The notes beneath the pieces were generated by a model, which saw only the letters and a program-made list of their open reading frames with translations, searched no databases and was not told where the DNA came from. A program made the position numbers and the translations under genes. Positions 7,534 through 58,507 of a stretch of DNA of 64,000 nt are shown one piece after another. Within the stretch, counting starts at the first letter, position 1; each line of letters begins with the position of its first letter. Origin of the DNA: Candidatus Thorarchaeota archaeon (GTDB lineage: Archaea; Asgardarchaeota; Thorarchaeia; Thorarchaeales; Thorarchaeaceae); contig CAVSBO010000017.1 in assembly GCA_963726195.1 (NCBI GenBank), positions 29,712 to 93,711 on the forward strand. The letters are read 5' to 3'.

Positions 7534-8043
7534 TCATCTACATACTGTAACACCACAGAAGGGACACTTGCACTGCTTTCCGTCTCGAATCAAGCTCACA
7601 GCCTGATCTGGCAATTCACCACCGCACATAGGGCAGAGATAGGCGGTCAGGTTCTGAGACATTTCGTCAATCGCAGGCATTATCATTGCTTCATCCTCGC
7701 CTGACATCCTCACTGTGCACGTAACTCCCTTCACTCCCGGTTTGCCAGTTATGGTCAGCTCAACGCCGAGATTCTTCTGTGTGTACTTTCCACGTGCCCA
7801 ACCATTGATGATTAGCTCGACGTGCTCATCAGACGTCGTATGACTGCTGGTCACATGAGAGAAATTCAACTTCTCAAACACCTGCAGGGTCTTTGAGCGC
7901 ATCTCTTCAGGAGTCCAGTCCTGGACCTTGAATGTCATCTCTTCGTGATTGAAGTCTGATAGTCTGAGTTCAAACTCGTCGGGTGTGATGACTTCAGGCA
8001 TAAGAAGATCGCAGACGGCCCTCACGGAAAATGGTTCAGTCAT
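7534..8043 (-). CDS. hypothetical protein with C-terminal zinc ribbon
   Basis: CPMCGG...CKCPFCG at the C-terminus. I place the start at Met31 of the tracked ORF (MTEPFS), giving an 8-nt ATGACTGA overlap with the upstream gene. Confidence 0.5.
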   Translation of the reverse strand: MTEPFSVRAVCDLLMPEVITPDEFELRLSDFNHEEMTFKVQDWTPEEMRSKTLQVFEKLNFSHVTSSHTTSDEHVELIINGWARGKYTQKNLGVELTITGKPGVKGVTCTVRMSGEDEAMIMPAIDEMSQNLTAYLCPMCGGELPDQAVSLIRDGKQCKCPFCGVTVCR

Positions 8044-8560
8044 AGCTGAGGTGCGGCTTTCCTTCGTCGTCAACATAGGATACGCTGGCAACGATGGCTC
8101 CTTTGATGCAGTCTTTGCTTGGAAGGAAATCAAAAGTGGGACTTACGAAACCGCTAGGATCAATCTTCGCAATAACCTTCACTGGGGGCCCCTCAAGTGT
8201 CAGAGCGTCGCGCGGGTAACTCACCAGACTGACAGTGACATCCGTAACTACGTATTTGGACCTGTTCAGTACCTTAACCTTGAACTTCAACCTGTTGCCA
8301 ACAAACTCGCCACCCCGAAGAATATCCACCGGTTCAGTCGGCTGAATTGGAAGAAAGGTGGTCTCTGACTCCATCGCACTAGCACCTATGTTGACAGCGG
8401 CTGCCATAGAGTCAATCAACGGATGGCGTTCCGGATCGAGACTCTCCACCATGGCTCCTATGAGTAGAATCAACACGGTAGCCCAGATTGGTGCTGACAT
8501 CAAGCCTGTGATCGGGTTTGCCATGATGATCACAGGTAGTGCAAGGAGAAAACCACGCAA
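8036..8560 (-). CDS. membrane-anchored beta-rich protein (hypothetical)
   Basis: 174-aa ORF with an N-terminal TM segment, then alternating beta-strand-like sequence (KFKVKVLNRSKYVVTDVTVSLVSY...). The TTG start at 8560 follows a TAA two codons upstream in the same frame. Confidence 0.5.
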   Translation of the reverse strand: MRGFLLALPVIIMANPITGLMSAPIWATVLILLIGAMVESLDPERHPLIDSMAAAVNIGASAMESETTFLPIQPTEPVDILRGGEFVGNRLKFKVKVLNRSKYVVTDVTVSLVSYPRDALTLEGPPVKVIAKIDPSGFVSPTFDFLPSKDCIKGAIVASVSYVDDEGKPHLSYD

Positions 8561-8950
8561 CCGACGCGGTTACCATCAGATTCTTGACGAATGCCCTCCT
8601 CTTGCACGTTCTTTTCCACCGCTGCGAAATATCAGCAAATCCACTTTTAGACTCCCTGTGAGCCCTCAATTCGGCCAGAGGCGACGACCAGAAGGAATAC
8701 TGACACAACTCCCCGAATAGTATCGCGAGTAACGGCGTGCATTCACTCTTACATCGAGCGCACAATGAAAGGTGTGGCCGGAGCCTGCAGGGTAAATCGT
8801 GGTAGGAGGGGGGAGTTTCGTAAATGAGGGCATGTAACGAAAACTAGCCCTGCAGACCAACCGACCACAATACTATATCGAGTTCTGGTTCGATATAAAC
8901 CAGCTCATTGTTCCAAAGCGATACACACGAACGGCACAAAAGCTCTTTAT

Positions 8951-9460
8951 GTGACAGGCCAGTCGTGCAACCAATTGAGCCGGTCATTGCCATATCAATC
9001 ATCGAGATTGGCAGCCCGGCAAGATATCACGCGGGGTGTATGTTTGGACGCAAGCAGATGCGACCCACTAGGAAGTCTGACGACAATCTATGGATTCTTC
9101 TTCATCTTCATGGCGACAGCGATTGCAGCAGCCCCTGTTCTGAAATCGACACTCGCTACGGAAGATGCAGTCATGTTCTATCTAATCGCAGTAGTACTGG
9201 GACTGGCCATTGCTCTCGTAGGCACGGAGATACTCGTACGTGCTAATGAGTGTCACGTGTACCGAATGGGACTCATCGGAACGACACTCTTAGGAATGTT
9301 TGTGCCGATTGCGTTCGTGTTTGGGGTTGGCAGGGGATTGATTCCCAACGCGTATTGGCTTGGATTGAACCTCTCGTACGCAGGCTCTCTTTGTGTTTCC
9401 GTAATTGTCGTCTTTATGTATCTCGGAGTACTAGCGCGGACCTTTCTCTCCAGAAGATGA
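8951..9460 (+). CDS. membrane protein (hypothetical)
   Basis: About four hydrophobic helices in the C-terminal 120 aa. The N-terminal 45 aa look non-protein-like, so the true start is probably internal. Confidence 0.4.
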   Translation: MTGQSCNQLSRSLPYQSSRLAARQDITRGVCLDASRCDPLGSLTTIYGFFFIFMATAIAAAPVLKSTLATEDAVMFYLIAVVLGLAIALVGTEILVRANECHVYRMGLIGTTLLGMFVPIAFVFGVGRGLIPNAYWLGLNLSYAGSLCVSVIVVFMYLGVLARTFLSRR

Positions 9461-9518
9461 ATCGCTGGCCAACTCTCAGCTGTTGGCAAGAAATACTGAA
9501 GCCTCTCAAGAGAACGAT

Positions 9519-10121
9519 TCATGTTGGATTCTCTTTGGAGCTGCTCTCCAAGGCGTTGATGTACTCTGAAACACTCAACGGGTCGGTATTGTAAGCTCGT
9601 TCTAGAGCGGCTCTGCACTGAATGCCATCTCCGAGTTCTGAATAGACCGATGCCAAATCGAGCCAAGCGTCTGTGTGTTCAGGATCAAGTTCGACTGCCC
9701 TGAGAAGAGCCCTCACTGCAGCATGGTACCTTCCTTGCGTCTTGAAGACGCCTCCGAGATTTGTCCAGAGGGCTGCGTCATCTCTCTCGAGCTTTATTGC
9801 CCGTCTGTACGCTGCTTCCGCCTTGCGCCACATTTGGAGCCTCCCCATCAGGTTGCCGAGCAAAAACCATCCTAGGTAACAGTCACCCACTTCCGACACG
9901 ACAGCCTCGAACGCATCTACGATTTCCCCCTTGGGTCCAGTTCTGAGGGCCAAGCTGGCGAGCTTCAGCCAGGCCCACCCATCCTTGGGAGTAGACTCCA
10001 CGATACGAATCTGGTCTGCAAAGATTCTATCGACACACTCACGCAGTTCAGCATCTGCGCTTGGAAGGAGCTGATTAACATCAGTACTCATTCGTAAGTC
10101 ACTTCCTCGGACAAGATTCAA
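9519..10121 (-). CDS. TPR repeat protein
   Basis: Repeated W-x2-LG-x...A-x3-Y/F-x2-A-x4-P units (AAYRRAIKLERDDAALWTNLG, RALLRAVELDPEHTDAWLDLA). The likely start is ATG at 10091 (MSTDV) rather than TTG at 10121. Confidence 0.7.
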   Translation of the reverse strand: MNLVRGSDLRMSTDVNQLLPSADAELRECVDRIFADQIRIVESTPKDGWAWLKLASLALRTGPKGEIVDAFEAVVSEVGDCYLGWFLLGNLMGRLQMWRKAEAAYRRAIKLERDDAALWTNLGGVFKTQGRYHAAVRALLRAVELDPEHTDAWLDLASVYSELGDGIQCRAALERAYNTDPLSVSEYINALESSSKENPT

Positions 10122-20467: not shown

Positions 20468-20902
20468 ATGAAGCTCACTATTGACGTTCTCAAGCAAACC
20501 ATCGATACGCTGCACATTGGCATTGTGCTCGTTGACAATGACGACAAGATTGTACTCTTCAATCGCGTTGCCGGTGAGATGTTGAAACAGGACCCAGCCA
20601 GCAGAATAGGGACATCAATATACAGATGCCATGCTGAAGTGTCGGAGCCCGCTGTCAAAAAGATGCTTACCGAGATTAGGTCCGGCGCTCTCAAGTACTA
20701 TGAAGGGTGGGTAAACTACCTCGGCCGGATGCTGTACGAGTATATCTATCCGGTTCGCAACGAGAAAGGAGAATGCGTTCTCGTTCTGGAGGAACTGCAC
20801 GACGCCGCTGAGAAAGCGGAGTACCTCAAGACAACAGGTGAGTGGAAAGACGTTCACGTTTCGGGCGTGGGTGTCAAGGCTCCCCGAGGTCCCAGACCTT
20901 AG
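20468..20902 (+). CDS. PAS domain protein
   Basis: IDTLHIGIVLVDNDDKIVLFNRVAGEML...YRCH...RMLYEYIYPVRNEKGE is a PAS fold pattern. It is a single-domain protein. Confidence 0.65.
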   Translation: MKLTIDVLKQTIDTLHIGIVLVDNDDKIVLFNRVAGEMLKQDPASRIGTSIYRCHAEVSEPAVKKMLTEIRSGALKYYEGWVNYLGRMLYEYIYPVRNEKGECVLVLEELHDAAEKAEYLKTTGEWKDVHVSGVGVKAPRGPRP

Positions 20903-21032
20903 AATCGTGCACATCTGACGGCATGACCGCAATCGGGCATAGCGAAGGCTTGAAATACCGAACGAAACCAGCCGCCGACAGTCCAAACATGCTAGGCGTC
21001 ACAAGAGACGCCGAAGGACAGGGGTGACTTGA

Positions 21033-22223
21033 ATGGGTCGGGACCCGACTGGTTGGATGAAGCAAGAATACGACAAACTCGTGCAAGATCATTTGGATTG
21101 GAAAATCAGAGAGCTGCAAGGACCTTCTGCACCAAAGTCGAAAGTCGATGGTGTCGATGTCATCATGCTCTGCAGCAACAACTACCTCAACTTGAGCAAT
21201 CACCCGAAGCTCAAGGAGGCGGCCATCAAAGCGATACAGACCCACGGTGTTGGATCAGGCTCCGTCAGAGCTATTGCCGGGACGATGGATCTTCACTTGG
21301 AGCTCGAAAGGCGCCTAGCGAAGTTCAAGGGTGCAGAGGCATCCCTGACCTACAGTGCAGGGTTCACTGCAAACGAGGGTCTCATTCCCACACTGGTTGA
21401 TGAAGGAGACGTAATCGTCTCTGATGAGTTGAACCACGGAAGCATAATTGATGGAGTCAGACTAACGAAGGCCAAGCGCTTTGTCTACAAGCACCGCGAC
21501 GTGGCTGACCTCGAACGAGTTCTGACTGACGTTGAGAAGGAGAATCCAAGGAGGATACTGATTATCACCGATGGTGTGTTCAGCATGGATGGCGACATCG
21601 CACCATTGGACAAGATTGTGAAAGCCGGGCAACCTCACGGTGCCATGATTTACGTTGATGATGCCCATGGCGAAGCCGTCCTCGGGAAGGGCGGGCGTGG
21701 AATAGTCTCCCACTTCAACCTCACACACAAGGATGTCCAGTTTGAAATGGGCACATTCAGCAAGGCATTCGGTGTAATGGGCGGCCATGTATCTGGCAGT
21801 AGGGACATGGTGAATTATGCGTTGAACAAGAGCCGGTCTTGGCTTCTGAGCGCATCACACCCGCCGGCCACAGCCGCATCGTGCATTGCTGCAATTGACG
21901 TGCTTGAGACTGAAGAGAAATGGGTGAAGACGCTCTGGGAGAATCGTGAGTATTTCGTCAAGCGTCTTACAAAGATGGGCTACAACATTGGCAACAGCCA
22001 GACGCCAATCGTTCCTGCCATGGTGGGCGATAGCGCAAAGGCAGTTGACCTGAGTGCCGGTCTTTACAAAGAAGGCATCTTGGCACTTCCAATTGTGTTC
22101 CCAATGGTCCCTCGTGACAAAGCTAGAATCCGGAACATGATGAACTCCGGTCTTACCAAGCCCCAGCTTGACCAAGCACTCGCAGCCTACGAAAAAGTCG
22201 GCAAGCAGCTTCACATCATTTAG
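21033..22223 (+). CDS. 2-amino-3-ketobutyrate CoA ligase / 8-amino-7-oxononanoate synthase family (PLP-dependent alpha-oxoamine synthase)
   Basis: SNNYLNL, DELNHGSIIDG, DDAHG and the PLP-lysine motif GTFSKAFG are all colinear with Kbl/BioF. I cannot separate kbl from bioF by eye. Confidence 0.85.
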   Translation: MGRDPTGWMKQEYDKLVQDHLDWKIRELQGPSAPKSKVDGVDVIMLCSNNYLNLSNHPKLKEAAIKAIQTHGVGSGSVRAIAGTMDLHLELERRLAKFKGAEASLTYSAGFTANEGLIPTLVDEGDVIVSDELNHGSIIDGVRLTKAKRFVYKHRDVADLERVLTDVEKENPRRILIITDGVFSMDGDIAPLDKIVKAGQPHGAMIYVDDAHGEAVLGKGGRGIVSHFNLTHKDVQFEMGTFSKAFGVMGGHVSGSRDMVNYALNKSRSWLLSASHPPATAASCIAAIDVLETEEKWVKTLWENREYFVKRLTKMGYNIGNSQTPIVPAMVGDSAKAVDLSAGLYKEGILALPIVFPMVPRDKARIRNMMNSGLTKPQLDQALAAYEKVGKQLHII

Positions 22224-34556: not shown

Positions 34557-34782
34557 GCTCTCTGCAGCATACGAAAGCTCGGAGAAAGGAATCTCGCTTT
34601 GGTTGATAACCTCTTGAACATGAATCCGCGAGCCGGCAGCTGAGAGCCCATGTCAATGAGGCGACTCTTGCGGCCTCTGCTGCTTTCTTGAGATGCTCAT
34701 GGCCGTGCTGGACTTCGTCTGTGGCTAAAGTGAAAAACCGATTGACAATTGATGCAGCAATTTCCTCTGCAGAAAGCGGCAA
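34528..34782 (-). CDS. possible detached N-terminal extension of the methyltransferase
   Basis: The first ~45 codons (MPLSAEEIAASIVNRFFTLATDEVQHGHEHLKKAAEAARVASL) look protein-like and the remainder is Cys/Arg-rich. The MTase frame is open and protein-like from ~34650 down to its ATG (HGLSAAGSRIHVQEVINQSEIPFSELSYAAES-M). This suggests a frame break near 34650-34660. Confidence 0.3.
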   Translation of the reverse strand: MPLSAEEIAASIVNRFFTLATDEVQHGHEHLKKAAEAARVASLTWALSCRLADSCSRGYQPKRDSFLRAFVCCREHGNIKTGST

Positions 34783-47485: not shown

Positions 47486-48926
47486 TTAGGAAGACTTGTC
47501 TTCCTTCTCGTCGGGTTCCTCAGGCTCAGGGGCACTCTTTTCTTCTTCGGGTTCTTCGGCCTGTTCGCCACCTTTCTCCTCTTCTGCTGCTGACACACGC
47601 TCCTCCTCTGTTGGCATCAGGGGCTTGCCAGCCTCAAGTGTTTGACGCAGTTTCCCTATCTGGCTCTTGCGAGCGAAATAGAGAGCAAAAATTACGCCAA
47701 CCGAGAGAGCGGCGGTCACAATAGACAGTGTTATCTGCCACTGGCTTGATCCGAAACCGAGTAGCTGGTCCCAAGTCACCAACAGGAAACCCAGCCCAGC
47801 CAAGTTCATTGCAAAGCTTCGAATTGGTGTCTCTATCTTCGTGACCTCGACGACACTGGTGTCAACCAATGCGGCTCCAATAACGCCGGAATTGTAGTTG
47901 TTCGACTTCGTACTCTTTGAGATCTTCCGAATAGACAGTGCCTTCTTCTTGCTCAAAAGCCTAAGAACGGAGTCAACCTTAGACGTCAGAAGCTCTGCAT
48001 AAGTCCTCTTCGCGTCATCAGTCTCAGTGCCGCATTTCTTGCACTTATCCAGACCACGATCCCACTTCGTCTTGCACTTGGGACAGACATCTTGCTTCCA
48101 TGCGTCAGGCGCAACCTCTCTCAACCTCTGCTTGATAATGTACCCGCTGACGCCATCTTTGGATTCGTCCTTGCCCTTCTTCTTGGTTTTCATCTGTTTT
48201 ACTATCGAGAAGAGCAATGGGAGAGCGCCAAGCACTGTTAGATTGGGCAGGGAACGAATCTCTGAAGCCTTTTTCTGAATGGTTCGAAACTTAGAGGCCG
48301 CCTTGAGACCGTCAATAAGACTGTAGAAGTTGTTGCCAATACCCCAGACTGCCCCTGCAGTTACCACCGTCGTAGCAATCCCGGCCACCGATGTGAACAC
48401 AGACGAAGGGACAAACACGTAGAACGAACCGGGGAGGTGATACACCGTAGAGTTGCCCATCTCGTTGTAGAAGAAGTCCACAGAAGCCTGGAAGAGAACC
48501 AGTCACAAGTTGAATCCCGCCGGACATCAAAAGCTGACCAAAGTTGAAATCTGCCGCAGGAGCCGTTATGTTAACATGTGTAGGAACTAAGACGAATGTT
48601 TGGTTGGTGCTCGGATCGCGGACATGAATGGTCAGTATGGCGATGCCTTGGTAGTAGAATATTATGTTAGCGCTCACATTGAGAGCCAATGTATCGGTGT
48701 TGTTTAGGCGAAGCGCCATGTGCATTGGACCTGTCATGTTAAGCTGAATCGGATTGTCAGAAGACGCCGTGGTAATCGGCCTCCCATTCAGCCCAATGTA
48801 CACCGACAGACGGGCATCACTAATCCACCCGGGCGTTGCCTGGGCGACACGAGGTGAAACAGCCAACACAATAACTAGAAGGACAACAGAACAAGACAGA
48901 AGGAGTCTAGGACGTGAGCGTGCCAT
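47486..48926 (-). CDS. secreted/membrane protein with internal zinc ribbon and acidic tail; frame apparently split
   Basis: ORF 48312-48926 has a signal peptide and a beta-rich ectodomain. Its last ~50 codons are Cys/Arg/Gly junk. The overlapping ORF 47486-48481 starts (GTG) exactly where sense is lost and continues with TM helices, CPKCKTK...CKKCG, more TMs and a Glu-rich tail. Confidence 0.5.
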
Positions 48927-52472: not shown

Positions 52473-52545
52473 AGGTGCCATCTCTTCGGTCGACCAGTTA
52501 TCACCGTCACGAAAGGATTTCCCTCTCCGGGCAGACTTTACGGGT

Positions 52546-52902
52546 CTAATCCCAATTCCCGATGTTTTCAAATCTCAAGTTGAATCTCCCGCAATTGCCG
52601 CAAAGGTACGTCGTTTTTGGTAATCGAAATTCTCCAATGTTCGTGTTCCAAGAGAATGCAATTTCCGTGGTTTTCGCGGGGGTCTGAAGAGAGGGGTCAT
52701 TATAATACTTGAACTTCTGCCCACAGTACGGGCACTTCTCTTTGGGATCCAGGTAATTGCCTAGCACGAACTTGTGACACTTTTCACAGTACCCGGGAGC
52801 ACCACAAAAGGTCTGGAAATTCTGGAACCCTCCTCCGGCTATGAATTCCTTCTTGAACCCACACTTGCAGGATGCGCGCAGCGTGTTGCCCATGATTATC
52901 AA
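52546..52902 (-). CDS. multi-zinc-ribbon small protein (hypothetical)
   Basis: 118 aa with CKCG, CEKC, CPYCG and CGNCG pairs. Confidence 0.5.
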   Translation of the reverse strand: MIIMGNTLRASCKCGFKKEFIAGGGFQNFQTFCGAPGYCEKCHKFVLGNYLDPKEKCPYCGQKFKYYNDPSLQTPAKTTEIAFSWNTNIGEFRLPKTTYLCGNCGRFNLRFENIGNWD

Positions 52903-53058
52903 AGTTAAATAAGGGAAGCGTGTTAATTAATGATTGGATGCTACGAGAGAGCATTCATTGTCGGTGTAGCGCCTGGGCCTTTTGACGTAATGATGAGACA
53001 GAAGGATGCAAGCGGTCCGCGGTCATAATGTGGGACTGAGATTGCGCAGGGAATTGAC

Positions 53059-53076
53059 ATGAGCATATCGACGCCT
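53059..53076 (+). pseudogene. 5-prime stub (start codon plus five more codons) of a mutS paralog, cut off by the IS
   Basis: ATG AGC ATA TCG ACG CCT = MSISTP, compared with MSVSTP at the start of the intact mutS (55811). The 16 nt upstream are also about 80 percent identical by my hand count (AGGGAATTGACATGAG vs GGGGAATCGTCATGAG). Confidence 0.65.
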
Positions 53077-54509
53077 TCCAAACAGTTCCATTCTATATGG
53101 GTTTACATAGGCATACGTTGCACAAATCCGGGTGTGCCTGAAAGACTCTGCACAGCTAATGAAAACCCAATTCCCTGAGCCGAGCGCCCTGAGATCTCAG
53201 GAGCCACAAGGAGGTTGCTCCAAGCGCTAAAGACCTATTCACTCAGCCATGACCAGGGCAAGGTACTCAACGGTCTAATGGCTGCCTACAACACCGTCCT
53301 CAACACCATGCTGCAGTGTATCTGGCAGACGACGGAATGGAGGAAGCATCAGATCAAAGGCAAGAAGCAGCACAGGTTCTACCCAAAGTACAGGAAGGAT
53401 AGTGTCTTCAAGCGGGCAGATGAGAGACAAATGCCTCGAAGAGTGGTGCTATGCAGCTCACTGGGTCGACTCCGCCATGAAGACGGCCTTCAGCATCATG
53501 GCTTCGTGGAAAACGAACTATGACAGGGGTGAGAGAAAAAGCGACTGCCCACATTCCCGGAGGCTCTTTTTGCGGGTCAAGCAGACCCTCCTCAAACTCG
53601 AGGGAGACACGCTCAGGATCACCCTCAAGCCACGTGAGTTCGTCTATATCGACCTCTCGCGACGTTACTTCAAGCTGCCCGGCAGCGTGTCCTCAGTGGG
53701 CTTGGGTGAACCGGTCATCACACCTGACAGAATACACCTGCCCATCCACGTGACTGAAGAAGAGAAGGAGAGAACTGCTGAGGCGATGGCGTGGGACTCG
53801 AACATGCTATCCATGGATGGCTACAGCCCTGAGACAGGCTGGGTGAAGATAGACACGAGGAAACTCGTGTCGGCGCACATATCGAGCTTCGAGAAGAGAC
53901 GCAGCGTACAGGCAAGGGCATCGAAGTGTAAGAGGATGAAGAGACTCCTCACAAAATACAGGAGAAGGGAAAGAAATCGTGCGAGGAAGCATCAAATTGA
54001 AATCGCTAGGGCAATCAGCGTGTTCTCGAACAGGAGCGGCTTCGAGGCACTGAGAAAGGAGAGGATGTATAGGCGCTCGAGACTGTGGAACCGCAGGTTA
54101 GCGAGAACGGACTGGCGGGGGATTATGAGAAGGGTTGCGGAAGGTGGTGCTGTTGAAGAGCTGTCTCCGCAGTTCACCTCGAAGAGGTGCTCCAGATGCG
54201 GGTGGATAGATAGAGACCTAAGAGGAGCGGTCTTCGAGTGTCGGAACTGCGGGCTAAGGATAGACAGGCAGCTCAATGCAGCGATCAACCTGTACCTGAA
54301 GATGGAGGGTGTTCCCCATAAGAAGGAGCGGTGGGATGCAAACATTCTACCGACACTTCGCGTGGGTAGGTACGTCCTGACGGGGGCGGAGCGGAAGGGA
54401 ACCGATGAACTCGTGAGGCTCCTAGATGATGCGGTGAAGCCCCAGATCTACGTGGAATACGATAGGTATGCTGACGCATACCTACCTACGCCTACATAGA
54501 TTGAAACCC
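53077..54509 (+). mobile_element. IS200/IS605-family, tnpB-only (IS1341-type) element, about 1.43 kb
   Basis: Boundaries are inferred (within a few nt) from where homology to mutS stops (53076) and resumes (54510). The element has a 14-bp perfect palindrome CCTGAGATCTCAGG at 53188-53201 in the left end. The right end has an 8-bp stem hairpin AGGTATGC-TGAC-GCATACCT at 54464-54483. No tnpA is present. Confidence 0.7.
53215..54499 (+). pseudogene. tnpB: TnpB (OrfB) RNA-guided nuclease, frame broken near codon 68
   Basis: RuvC-I AWDSN, FEAL (RuvC-II Glu), the zinc finger CSRCGW...CRNCG, and RuvC-III DRQLNAAINL. The N-terminal 68 codons (53215-53420) are in another frame. Removing one G from the GGG run at 53414-53416 gives ...DSVFKRQMRDKCLEEWCYAAHW. 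AAGGAGG lies upstream of the TTG start. Confidence 0.85.
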
Positions 54510-54897
54510 CATGAGGCAACAGTATACGCAGCTGAAGAGACAGTTTCCCGACTGTCTGTTGATGTTTAGGATTGGAGGCTTCTTCGATCTGTTCAACGAA
54601 GATGCCAAGACCGCAAGCCAAGTACTTGACATCGTACTCACGGCTCGCGGCGAAGGTGTAGACAAGTGGCCTATGTGTGGAGTTCCCTATCATGCAGTAG
54701 AGGGGTACGTGGCGAAGCTGCTGTAAGCTGGCTACACTGTTGCGATCCCGGACTAGATGGAGGACCTTGCGAAGGCGAAGGGCTTAGTGAAGTGTGGCAC
54801 TGTGCCGGTAGTCACTCCCGGCACCGCACTTGAACCCGACATGCTCCAAGAGACGTCAAACAACTACTTGGTGGCGCTTGACGAACACGATGGCGGA
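54510..54897 (+). pseudogene. mutS paralog remnant (mismatch-binding domain I, about 130 codons) with two in-frame stops, truncated
   Basis: It is colinear and in frame with mutS codons 7-135: MRQQYTQLKRQFPDCLLMFRIGGFFDLFNEDAKTASQVLDIVLTARGEGVDKWPMCGVPYHAVEGYVAKLL*AGYTV...D*... TAA at 54724 and TAG at 54754 replace Gln codons. Homology ends about 20 nt before the convergent gene at 54918. Confidence 0.8.
54589..54723 (+). repeat. 135-nt near-identical core shared with mutS (partner 55907-56041)
   Basis: Hand alignment gives 3 mismatches in 135 nt (at 54633, 54672 and 54681). The 78 nt upstream show 21 mismatches. Confidence 0.8.
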
Positions 54898-54917
54898 CTA
54901 AACCTGAGGTGCTCTTC

Positions 54918-55472
54918 TCACTCTGCACCTTGCCAAGGTGACTCTATCTTCTTTCCAGCCCTTGAAACGAATAATGCGACAATTGGTATGATAGGAATCG
55001 GCACAGCAATGGTGAAGCTGGCAGGGACCAAGACTGGAACGAGGTAGACTGCATATGGCAGAATCAACGCAGTAGCAGTCCAGACATAGACAGTTCTTGC
55101 ATCCACCAGGCCGCTCACTTTGTCGTGCACGAGCTTGATGAGATAGAGAGTGGGCAGGTACACCAATCCCATGAAAGAGAGGATACCCACAGGAAGAGGG
55201 AGAAGCTCCCATGGGTGAGCATTGTCTGCCCCAGTCACTTGGACTGCTTCCCACGCAAAGCCGTACAAGCGATAGACTCTAGCTGGCAGGTCAACTAACT
55301 CCACGTACATGGTCGGGCACAGGAATACGATGGCTACCATCGCATAAGTAATCCTGCGAACCTGTTTGACTGAACGTTCTTGAGGCCTAAGATTCGCTTC
55401 TGTCGGGGGAGGATTCATTTCGGGAACACCACAGCTGCTCCTTTGTCGTGATAGGACTGATGTTGCGCACAC
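54918..55472 (-). CDS. membrane protein (hypothetical)
   Basis: 184-aa ORF with about five TM helices. Start is GTG 55472 or ATG 55418 (MNPPPTE). Confidence 0.5.
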   Translation of the reverse strand: MCATSVLSRQRSSCGVPEMNPPPTEANLRPQERSVKQVRRITYAMVAIVFLCPTMYVELVDLPARVYRLYGFAWEAVQVTGADNAHPWELLPLPVGILSFMGLVYLPTLYLIKLVHDKVSGLVDARTVYVWTATALILPYAVYLVPVLVPASFTIAVPIPIIPIVALFVSRAGKKIESPWQGAE

Positions 55473-55810
55473 TACAGATACGGTCTGGCTTACAGTCTAG
55501 TCAGTTCGCCTCCTTCGTCCAGATGAGAGGCTATGCACGGACAAATCAACTGACCTAGTTGAGATACGCGGAACTTGTACCCTTGCCGCTGTCGTGATAG
55601 ACCATCTTCGCTTGCAATCATTTCGGTCTCAGATAGATGGCCGCTGCCCACAGTCTTGAGCGTTCGTTGCAGCCGAGCATGGAAACTGCGGTGCAGGTGC
55701 ACAAGATCAATAATGCATGGACTACAGCAAAGGTATTTGTGCCAAGAAGGGCAGCCGAATCTCCCTAGCATACCCTTTGGGAATGTACCGAGGCTACATG
55801 GGGAATCGTC

Positions 55811-58416
55811 ATGAGTGTTTCTACTCCAATGAAGCAGCAGTACACACATCTCAAGAGGCAGTATCCTGACTGCTTGCTTCTATTTCGACTGGGAGACTTC
55901 TTCGAGCTGTTCAACGAAGATGCCAAGACCGCAAGCCAAGTACTTGACATTGTACTCACGGCTCGCGGCGAAGGTGTAGACAAGTGGCCCATGTGTGGGG
56001 TTCCCTATCATGCAGTAGAGGGGTACGTGGCGAAGCTGCTGCAAGCGGGATATACAGTCGCAATGGCAGACCAAGTCGAGGATCCTGCGAAGGCCAAAGG
56101 ACTCGTCAAGCGTGACATTGTACGAGTCTTGACACCCGGCACATTACTTGAGCCAGGGATGCTTCAGGAGACCTCAAACAATTACCTTGTGGCATTGGTC
56201 GAACATGAGAACATGGTCGGCATTGCCGCAGTTGACGTTTCAACCGGAGAGTTTCTAGCAGCTGAAATCGAGGGCTCGATGACCAGTGAGAAGGTAGTCA
56301 ATGAGCTTGGACGGCTGGGACCAGCTGAGCTCTTGATTCCCGACTCCGTTTCGAAAAGACCAGATGTGAAAGCGGTATTGGAAGATACAGGTGCCAAACT
56401 GACATTCAGGAATGATCTTGACTTCTTGTCGTCGTCGGCTGAAGAGCGGCTAAGAGAAAGATTCGGGGTTGCTACGCTTGAGGGATATGGTCTCTCCGGC
56501 AAGAGGGTAGCAATTGGGGCCGCTGGAGCTATCCTCGCATATCTGAACGAAGTTCACAAGAACAACGCGGTCACGCTTTCGGGAATCAGAACCTACACGT
56601 TAGACGAATACATGATCATCGACAACATAACTGTGAGGAATCTAGAACTCATTAAGAATGCAAGAGACGGTACGACAAGGGGAACGCTCCTGAGTGTGCT
56701 TTCCAACACGGAGACATCAATGGGCAAGAGAAAACTGAGGCACTGGATACTGCAGCCCCTTAGGAGCCAAGAACCCATAGAGATGAGACTCGACGCGGTA
56801 GAAGAACTTGCTCGCGGAGCTCTCACTCGCCAGACTCTGTCAGAGAGCCTTGGTCATCTGGGTGATCTTGAGAGAATAACTAGTAGAACGGTATTCGGGA
56901 CTGCCAATGCGAGAGACCTTCTCGCGCTTAGAAATGCGCTAAGCAGAATTCCATCTGTGAAGAAAGCCCTGAGTGGCTGCAACTCAAGAATGCTGAAACA
57001 AGCGGCGGAATCTGTCGACTCCTTGCCTGAACTTGCGGATACTCTGCAGAATGCACTGGTTGATGACCCACCCGTAAGCGTGCGAGAAGGAGGCATGATT
57101 CGAGAAGGCTACAGCCATGACTTGGATCAGCTGAAGAAATCAATCTCGTCTGACAAGAAATGGATTGCTTCGCTTCAGGAAAGAGAGCGCAGACGTATTG
57201 GAATCAAGACTCTCAAAGTGGGCTACAACAAGATCTTTGGCTACTATATTGAGGTGAGCAGCAGCAATGCCAGTTCGGTGCCAAAGGACTACGAGAGGAA
57301 ACAGACACTCGTTGGCGGCGAGAGATACATCACACCCGAACTAAAGGAGAAGGAATCATCCGTCCTCAGCTGGAGAGGACAAGATCAACGAGTTGGAATA
57401 TGAACTCTATGAGGGACTGAGAAACAAAGTCAAAGATGTCATGGAAGTCTTACAGCGTGATGCTGACGCAATGGCGACGGTTGATGCTCTCTCCAGTCTT
57501 GCAGAGACAGCTGTCAAGAGAAGATATGTCAGGCCTAGAGTAAACAATGGAACGAGAATCGATATCGTTGATGGCCGCCACCCCGCCCTCGAGATGATTC
57601 TGGGTCCCAACGAGTTCGTTCCCAACAGTCTAGACATAGGCAATGGCGGCACCACTCTCCTCATTGTGACTGGTCCAAATATGGCCGGAAAGAGCACATA
57701 CATGAGAACAAGCTGCCCTCATCGTGTTGATGGCGCAAATGGGATCATTCGTGCCAGCAAAGGAAGCCGAGATAGGACTCGTCGACAGGATATTCACGAG
57801 AGTGGGTGCATTTGATGACCTTACTGCTAGACAAAGCACGTTCATGGTAGAGATGATCGAAACTGCAAACATACTGAACAATGCCACCGAGAGGAGTCTG
57901 GTTGTGCTTGACGAGATTGGCAGAGGAACCTCGACTTTCGATGGGATGGCACTTGCATGGGCAGTGGCAGAACGCATTGTGCAATTGAAGACTCGAACCC
58001 TCTTCGCCACGCACTTTCATCAATTGACAGACATGTCAAGCCTATACCACGGCGTGAAGAACGTGCACACGTTGGCCAGAGAGTCGGGCGACACAATCAT
58101 CTTTCTTCACAAGGTTGTAGATGGGGGTACAGACAAGAGTTACGGAGTTCACGTGGCGGCTTTGGCAGGTGTTCCGGAACCAGTTGTCAAGAGAGCGAGA
58201 GAGATTCTGGCTCGACTAGAACAGGAAAACGTTACGGGCTTGGGTGAGGCTTCTGCCACAAGTAGCGTGTCGCTTCAGACTTCTCTCGAACCGTTGATGG
58301 CCGACGATCCGCTGATAGAACGTATCACCAACATGGACCTAGAAAGGACCACACCCATTGACGCCCTCCTCCAGCTCAAGGAGATGCAGGACGAGGCTAA
58401 GAAACGAAAGAGATAG
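55811..58416 (+). pseudogene. mutS: DNA mismatch repair protein MutS (bacterial MutS1 type), split into three ORFs by two frame breaks
   Basis: Domain I (TPMKQQY...GDFFELF), core/clamp, then Walker A GPNMAGKSTYMR, and DEIGRGTSTFDG plus THFH in the third ORF. The breaks are near 57365-57371 (...ESSVLS / AGEDKINELEYELYEG) and at the AA run 57707-57708 (...STYMR / QAALIVLMAQMGSFVPA). Confidence 0.9.
55907..56041 (+). repeat. 135-nt near-identical core shared with the mutS remnant (partner 54589-54723)
   Basis: See the partner feature. The offset between copies is 1318 nt. Confidence 0.8.
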
Positions 58417-58507
58417 CCTGCCAGATACCTGAACTGAAAGCTGCGAGCGATGTGACATGTCTTGGGCAAATGCAGCTCAAATTACCACTGGTTGCCAGAA
58501 GGCTTAA

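Follow-up and report, generated by a model that had tools for sequence, protein, structure and literature searches.

The DNA analysed here, referred to below as the window, is a stretch of 64,000 nucleotides (nt) of contig CAVSBO010000017.1 (GCA_963726195.1) from a Candidatus Thorarchaeota archaeon, and all coordinates are window positions. It carries a gene for the mismatch-repair protein MutS (the current mutS) and, upstream of it, an orphaned mutS start, a TnpB-only insertion sequence (IS) that splits this start from its continuation, a truncated mutS segment with stop codons, and an orphan spacer (Table 1). The split start and the truncated segment together are called the relic. A first-pass annotation, made without database searches, had described a TnpB-only IS that interrupts a second mutS 5′ segment, truncated and carrying stops, upstream of the main mutS, and this description is supported. 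Comparison with related genomes shows in addition that the relic and the current gene are both mosaics: the native mutS begins in the relic and continues in the current gene, and the DNA lying between these native parts, apart from a shared patch and the IS, is imported.

Contigs of the same population were obtained from freshwater-sediment runs (X1, X4, X6 and X9), which are ~100% identical to the window but provide only ~3x depth. Close relatives were represented by peat and wetland runs (X2, X3 and X5), in which the flanking genes are ~97–99.5% identical to those of the window. The nearest genome, Candidatus Thorarchaeota OWC5, has a MutS with 86% amino-acid identity and was used as outgroup; its mutS is intact (868 amino acids, aa) and directly follows a CoA-binding gene. 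Seventeen Thorarchaeota-like mutS loci from JGI, including L082, formed the comparison set for possible donors.

The first six codons of the relic, ATG AGC ATA TCG ACG CCT (MSISTP), are found at 53059–53076. When 53059–53075 is joined to 54510–54897, the result is 135 codons that align without gaps to the current mutS at 55811–56215 (blastn: 80.4% identity over 383 nt, E = 1e-98). This bears out the earlier claims of colinear homology across both junctions and of an in-frame relic free of indels that carries two stops, TAA (54724–54726) and TAG (54754–54756). The residues MRQQYTQLK, previously placed at 54510, begin at 54511. The homology ends abruptly at 54897/54898, 20 nt short of the stop of the convergent open reading frame (ORF) in the spacer, much as had been described. 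Similarity had also been reported for the 16 nt upstream of the two ATGs; only slight likeness is present there (12 of the last 20 nt ungapped, or ~35 nt with one gap).

Divergence between the relic and the current gene is concentrated at the two ends of the alignment. Segment a (nt 0–84) has 25 differences in 85 positions and segment b (nt 236–404) has 55 in 169, compared with only 6 in 151 in the intervening segment P (nt 85–235; Fisher's test against P, p = 6e-8 for a and p = 9e-12 for b). The relic thus consists of segments designated a1, P and b1', and the current gene of a2, P and b2.

Table 1. Coordinates of features in the mutS region of the window, in order of position.
Feature	Position	Strand	Remarks
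Native mutS upstream region	52903–53058	+	Common to close relatives; last ~35 nt resemble the stretch preceding the start of the current mutS
Orphaned native mutS start (codons 1–5 and first two bases of codon 6)	53059–53075	+	Empty site in X2, X3 and X5
TnpB-only IS200/IS605-type (IS1341-like) element, 1434 bp	53076–54509	+	No target duplication; 5′ flank ACGCC; ends common to L099 and L101–L106
tnpB	53215–54499	+	Begins at TTG after a GGAGG motif; 427 aa without the extra G at 53414
Putative omega-RNA scaffold, extending over the 3′ end of tnpB and the right end of the element	54290–54509	+	Includes 9-bp hairpin 54463–54484
a1, remainder (third base of codon 6 to ~codon 28)	54510–54577	+	One private change, L27I
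P, relic copy of the shared 150-nt patch	54578–54728	+	96% identical to 55896–56046; ~70% either side
b1', foreign decayed mutS fragment (codons ~79–135)	54729–54897	+	TAG at 54754
Orphan spacer, 913 nt	54898–55810		Omitted in relatives' contigs; 100% identity in X1 and X9
Spacer ORF, predicted small hydrophobic protein with three transmembrane segments	54918–55472	-	Database gene call of 130 aa, ~54918–55310
a2, foreign 5′ end of the current mutS (codons 1–27)	55811–55891	+	Relatives join the current copy only from 55892
Current mutS, MutS domains I–V	55811–58416	+	868 aa without the extra bases at 57367 and 57707

The origin of each segment is evident from the relatives and the outgroup. At 18 of the 19 sites that separate the relic from the current mutS in segment a, a1 agrees with the close relatives, and OWC5 is likewise nearer to the relic (85% identity) than to the current gene (77%). 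The reverse holds for segment b, where OWC5 is 82% identical to the current mutS and 63% to the relic, and the relatives also match the current gene. From these alignments, a1 of the relic and b2 of the current gene are assigned as native, and a2, the spacer and b1' as imported. The previous description of a decayed mutS copy is therefore correct as regards its truncation and stops, but not for its first ~80 nt, which are the native start; similarly, the distinction drawn between a real mutS and a relic does not follow the boundary between native and foreign DNA, since the imported parts are the first 81 nt of the real gene, the 913 nt that precede it and the last ~170 nt of the relic.

Both imported arms have the appearance of former coding sequence. 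The a2 segment is 70% identical to a1, with 17 of the 25 differences at third codon positions and amino-acid changes that are all conservative, and it is 82% identical to L082. Of the 55 differences between b1' and the current mutS, 35 fall at third positions; b1' is 70% identical to L082 and has lost conserved arginines. The third-position bias in both arms indicates that they diverged as working genes in another lineage.

Segment P has a different history. The copy in the current gene departs from that of the relatives at just three sites, all of them shared with the relic, and for this reason both copies are regarded as recipient-type, the relic copy having drifted since. The relic copy carries 6–7 private changes, including D29G, E32D and Q78* (the TAA at 54724), and these three fall on conserved residues, E32D being in the Phe-X-Glu mismatch-binding motif of MutS. 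Nucleotide identity of P to OWC5 and L082 is only 77–79%, so the segment is not under unusual selective conservation and the 96% identity between its two copies reflects recombination.

Contigs of the close relatives (X2, X3 and X5) retain the locus without these additions. They follow the window from 52500 to 53073 (~99.5% identity), jump to 54508–54573, and then jump to 55892 and onward. The two jumps (53073 to 54508, with a slack of 2, and 54573 to 55892) omit 1434 bp and 1318 bp, both exactly colinear, and the relatives therefore have one uninterrupted mutS, in which the first ~80 nt of the relic are joined straight to the downstream gene. On this comparison, the ancestral locus consisted of the upstream gene followed by a single mutS (a1, P, b2), an arrangement still found in the close relatives.

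Two origins had been offered for the second mutS segment, a partial duplication and a recombined foreign fragment, and only the latter agrees with these data. Had part of the native mutS 5′ end been tandemly duplicated in place and one copy then decayed, two colinear copies in direct orientation would be expected, and the stops in the relic would be accounted for. However, a2 and b1' are ~30% divergent from the native a1 and b2, whereas the locus as a whole differs from the relatives by only 0.5–3%; the third-position bias is that of divergence under selection, not of decay, and the spacer is without a counterpart in the relatives. In-place duplication with decay is extremely improbable and was rejected on the extent of divergence and its codon-position bias.

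The IS within the orphaned start could be delimited at both ends. The empty site in the relatives (X2, X3 and X5) reads ...ATATCGACG followed directly by CCCATGAGG, and its sequence around the insertion point, ...ATCGACGCC^CATGAGG... (ACGCC^CATG), shows that no target duplication accompanied insertion. The right end, ...TTGAAACCC (...GAAACCC), is common to eight copies from OWC5, JGI contigs and Atabeyarchaeia-1, beyond which the flanks are unrelated, and the left end, T(T/C)C(C/T)(A/T)A(A/T)AC(A/T)GTTCCA..., is common to four copies. Together, the empty site and the shared ends define the element and place it inside codon 6 (CC^C). The first-pass annotation had correctly seen a TnpB element in the intervening DNA, but had estimated this at ~1433 bp and placed the insertion between codons 6 and 7. 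It had also proposed a search for further copies to fix the ends and the target motif, and the ends now come from the eight right ends and four left ends. The 5′ flanks of four copies are ACGCC, ACGCT, TCGTC and TCGCC, giving the motif WCGYY, which is provisional given that it is based on only four copies.

The element encodes a TnpB with a RuvC-like nuclease domain and a zinc-finger C-terminus (Pfam PF07282, E = 3e-14), and carries no tnpA. Homologues at 85–87% identity, which occur in Thorarchaeota, have PF27234 as well as PF07282; PF01385 is present in some homologues. The matches in PDB are to Cas12f and to the TnpB of ISDra2 (8exa). The complete genome of the Asgard archaeon Atabeyarchaeia-1 (CP147779) contains at least nine TnpBs of the same family (62–79% amino-acid identity), with at least eight copies at 73–79%, and those fetched as DNA (L102–L105) have near-identical right ends. 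By protein similarity, different Asgard lineages have the family in common, and its more distant members occur in Methanosuratincola, Conexivisphaerales and Marsarchaeota. It is also multi-copy in the metagenomes of the relatives, where the IS has a depth of 30–50 compared with 8–15 for the flanks (X2 and X3), and varied flanks follow position 54509.

Conservation among the copies is highest towards the right end, at 92–96% in 54363–54462 and 85–94% in 54463–54509, compared with 62–93% elsewhere in the element. The consensus fold of this 3′ region is stable (70 pairs), with minimal covariation (only two compensatory changes), and a conserved, folded region of this kind is compatible with a putative guide-RNA scaffold. 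A left-end palindrome and a right-end hairpin had been noted earlier. The hairpin is supported, being conserved and having a fold z-score of -2.1; the palindrome is likewise conserved among the copies, with a fold that does not reach significance (z = -0.87). Searches of Rfam, using both gathering and E-value thresholds, gave no match for the IS or the relic region.

Some other members of the family differ in structure. An additional stretch of DNA lies between the left end and tnpB in one Atabeyarchaeia-1 copy (~500 nt; L102, ~960–1460) and in that of OWC5 (~100 nt; L099, ~2270–2410), and is lacking in the window's copy. A JGI contig (Ga0526686_0039899, L101) carries at 1095–2539 a copy that is 86% identical to that of the window, with its tnpB called as two ORFs. 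The flanks of this copy match loose ends in X1 and X3, in which ...CGACATTCGTC is followed by TCCT... and ...GAAACCC is followed by GATAGTCTTTTATC..., indicating that the same or a closely related population has at least two diverged members of the family.

The current mutS had been described as a full-length gene at 55811, but in the window it is broken into three ORFs by single extra bases at 57367 and 57707, just as tnpB is broken into two by an extra G at 53414. The base at 57367 is absent from X1, which is otherwise 100% identical, and from X2, X3 and X5; that at 57707 is absent from X2 and the G at 53414 from X4. Further extra bases relative to same-population contigs were found at 34642, 40898 and ~48497, a rate of about one per 4 kb, with essentially no substitutions. 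Judging from these contigs, indel errors of the assembly are the most likely cause of the frameshifts in both genes, tnpB and mutS, which are probably intact. A real inactivation of mutS by its two frameshifts was considered and rejected, as similar extra bases occur about once per 4 kb and are absent from the short-read contigs. In GCA_963726195.1, frameshifts that seem to make pseudogenes of mutS and tnpB should not be trusted.

Extra bases also split other ORFs of the window, such as 47486–48481 and 48312–48926 (minus strand), and overlapping groups of same-strand ORFs at 7534–8560 (minus), 8908–9594 (plus), 9253–10121 (minus) and 20615–21245 (minus) look like genes split by one-base frame errors. 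At 58417 a difference exists only against the relatives X2 and X3.

With the two extra bases removed, a2 is in frame with the remainder of mutS. The Pfam domains MutS_I, II, III, IV and V occur in order over the three ORF pieces, and the repaired protein is colinear with that of OWC5, identifying it by domain content as a bacterial-type MutS (MutS1). The spacer presumably carries the current mutS promoter. Its ORF product matched only the window's own gene call among 5.8 billion proteins, and had no match in viral contigs. None of the ORFs in 54898–55810 matched Pfam or PHROG, including any integrase, and comparison of the spacer with ~100 fetched loci by blastn and tblastx found no match. By GC composition, the spacer is not marked as foreign. 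None of the 17 JGI loci is close to a2 or b1', the best being L082 (82% and 70% identity, respectively), and a large protein search with the MutS N-terminus returned only short fragments at no more than 76% identity. The window itself contains no further mutS fragments or IS copies.

Between the CoA-binding gene and mutS is a gene for a 118-aa zinc-ribbon protein (52546–52902, minus strand) with four CxxC-type pairs. Its Pfam and PHROG matches are weak, and the gene is kept in the close relatives but is not at the equivalent position in OWC5.

In Campbell-type, or 'ends-in', integration, a circle bearing a 5′ gene fragment enters the gene by one crossover; of the two resulting copies, the truncated one follows the native promoter and the complete one the incoming promoter. 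When such integration involves gap repair, as seen in yeast and in bacterial genetics, both repeats are recipient-type over the repaired tract. In the window, the insert is flanked by direct repeats of P, of which the upstream copy belongs to a gene truncated at codon 135 and the downstream copy to a complete one. The order within the insert, with b1' upstream of the spacer and a2 downstream, corresponds to the donor order (spacer, a2, P, b1') after circular permutation, so a linear donor cannot give the arrangement in one step.

The explanation we lean towards, at somewhat better than even chance, is that a small foreign DNA was integrated by a single crossover of this insertion-duplication type in the 5′ part of mutS, in the lineage of the window. 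The donor, most simply circular, would have carried the upstream region and first ~135 codons (a2, P, b1') of the mutS of another Thorarchaeota lineage, together with ~0.9 kb of orphan DNA. The exchange tract would lie at nt ~81–236 of mutS, where the recipient-type sequence of both copies is what heteroduplex correction or double-strand gap repair would predict. One product, the relic, would be truncated and follow the native promoter (a1, P, b1'), and the other would be a complete mutS (a2, P, b2) with a foreign promoter, start codon and first 27 codons, the native start being left orphaned. The relic would since have gained its private changes, some of them nonsynonymous or nonsense. A TnpB-only IS200/IS605 element from a multi-copy Asgard family sits in the orphaned start, after ACGCC, and may have arrived there before or after the integration. 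We infer the circular form of the donor, the gap repair or heteroduplex correction, the use of the new promoter, and the activity of TnpB with a guide RNA from the arrangement of the sequences.

Several points weigh against integration of a foreign circle. With just ~70% identity to the recipient, the donor arms make a poor substrate for homologous recombination; a free circle of 1.3 kb is hypothetical; and no recombinase is encoded in the insert. A donor genome holding a2, b1' or the spacer was not found by the protein, JGI-locus, viral-contig and fetched-locus searches. Lastly, no independent read or contig in the public runs searched spans any of the four novel junctions (a1/left end, right end/a1, P/b1' and b1'/spacer), with the low depth of the same-population runs.

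This lack of read support, and the indel errors of the assembly, would also fit an assembly artefact, in which different strains or species were wrongly joined at the 150-nt repeat to give the order relic, spacer, mutS. A chimera is nevertheless very unlikely, because the relic has private substitutions and stops unlike any working allele, in an assembly where substitution errors are otherwise essentially nil, and because the b1'/spacer junction lies outside any repeat and so cannot be made by a repeat-induced misjoin. In addition, the spacer, the junction from spacer to a2, and the continuous a2, P, b2 sequence are all confirmed at 100% identity in X1 and X9.

The same mosaic could be produced by ordinary recombination of linear DNA, with no circle, if a relic-spacer-mutS arrangement had arisen by tandem duplication in another lineage and a linear P-b1'-spacer-a2-P fragment was then imported by a double crossover inside P. 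This would require more steps, and a donor with a P at least 95% identical to that of the window between flanks at ~70%, yet P reaches only 77–79% in OWC5 and L082, and such a donor was not found among the searched loci. We regard an imported linear tandem as quite unlikely.

A site-specific origin was also considered, in which the insert is the remnant of an integrative element that targeted the mutS 5′ region using its own mutS-like attachment (att) region (a2, core, b1'). P would then be the att core, and the integrase and most of the cargo would have been lost or supplied in trans. The logic is that of the mutS elements of Chu et al. 2017 (PMC5296598), with an orphaned host start that matches relatives and a promoter and start supplied by the element. 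The flanking direct repeats fit, and a2 looks selected and b1' unselected, as would be the case for the two arms of a target-mimicking attP. On the other hand, the 913-nt spacer has no integrase or recognisable gene, 150 nt would be a very long core for a site-specific reaction, the crossover is away from the TPMxQQ motif, and a second mutS N-terminal fragment was found in none of 97 other mutS loci examined. A remnant of this kind is considered unlikely.

A speculative reading puts the IS before the foreign DNA. TnpB is known to read its guide from the DNA flanking the right end of the element and to cut vacant sites (Karvelis et al. 2021, PMC8612924; Meers et al., preprint 10.1101/2023.03.14.532601). 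Assuming that the window's element also reads its right-end flank, the predicted guide match is CATGAGGCAACAGTATACGC next to ACGCC; such a guide would fit the native a1 allele and not a2, which at the corresponding place has ACTCC instead of ACGCC and 5 mismatches in 20. The IS may have come first and inactivated the native mutS at codon 6. Deficient in mismatch repair, the cell would then have tolerated recombination at ~70% identity and been rescued by the foreign 5′ fragment and its promoter, taken up downstream of the IS, with a diverged allele favoured since the guide RNA would direct TnpB to cut IS-free native alleles. This sequence of events is considered unlikely; if true, an RNA-guided transposon nuclease would have forced the replacement of the start of a repair gene by a heterologous one.

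The relatives preserve the locus as it was before both events, providing a record of an Asgard core DNA-repair gene that gained a foreign N-terminus and, presumably, a foreign promoter by recombination of sequences sharing just ~70% identity. The locus also documents a TnpB element that inserted recently in an Asgard archaeon, for which the empty site, both ends and a provisional target motif are available. Signs of recent mobility are rare among the many archaeal TnpBs (PMC10691335).

Among known transposable elements, that of the window is similar to the IS1341 group and ISDra2, with a TnpB having RuvC and zinc-finger C-terminal domains, and with no tnpA, terminal inverted repeats or target duplication. 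Like TnpB-only elements of the IS200/IS605 type, it is inserted 3′ of a short motif and has a right-end hairpin and a conserved 3′ region. It differs from these elements in belonging to an archaeal/Asgard clade (Pfam MJ0013-type N-terminus), in its provisional GC-rich WCGYY motif, and in having a left-end structure that is not significant.

Bacterial mutS genes are reportedly mosaic, as described by Denamur and colleagues in 2000, with horizontal replacement of mismatch-repair alleles and the associated idea of 'mutator rescue'. The current mutS is like these in that a segment has been replaced from a diverged lineage with sharp breakpoints, and unlike them in that the displaced native start and orphan DNA remain beside the gene, with no clean swap, and that the host is an archaeon. 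With Campbell insertion-duplication the locus shares a truncated and a complete copy, both with recipient-type P. In laboratory constructs of that kind the homology is identical, whereas the case in the window is natural and its arms are ~70% identical.

By analogy, the closest precedent is provided by the integrase-bearing elements of 4 to >150 kb that are found in the HTPMMQQ motif of proteobacterial mutS and excise as circles (Chu et al. 2017, mBio, PMC5296598). Such elements are carried by Vibrio splendidus 12B01 and by hundreds of Beta- and Gammaproteobacteria, and give mutS a new promoter and start, leaving the host start orphaned upstream (PMC5296598). The outcome in the window is alike: an insert near the mutS start provides an in-frame new start, N-terminal codons and a presumed promoter, a host-type start matching that of relatives is orphaned upstream, and the insert lies between similar sequences. 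The arrangement is different, being archaeal (in an Asgard host) and without an integrase, with an insert of only 1318 bp. Its exchange tract of 150 nt is at codons 28–78 and not at the motif equivalent to HTPMMQQ, and the orphaned copy extends to codon 135, ending in mutS sequence that is foreign and decayed. The TnpB element, which is separate from this insert, does lie at T-P^M (53071–53076, 54510–54513) of STPMRQQY, the archaeal equivalent of HTPMMQQ (PMC5296598), a position that may reflect the WCGYY target preference of the element. Since the outcome mirrors that of the proteobacterial integrase-bearing elements, the analogy suggests that the 5′ end of mutS is a recurrent target across domains.

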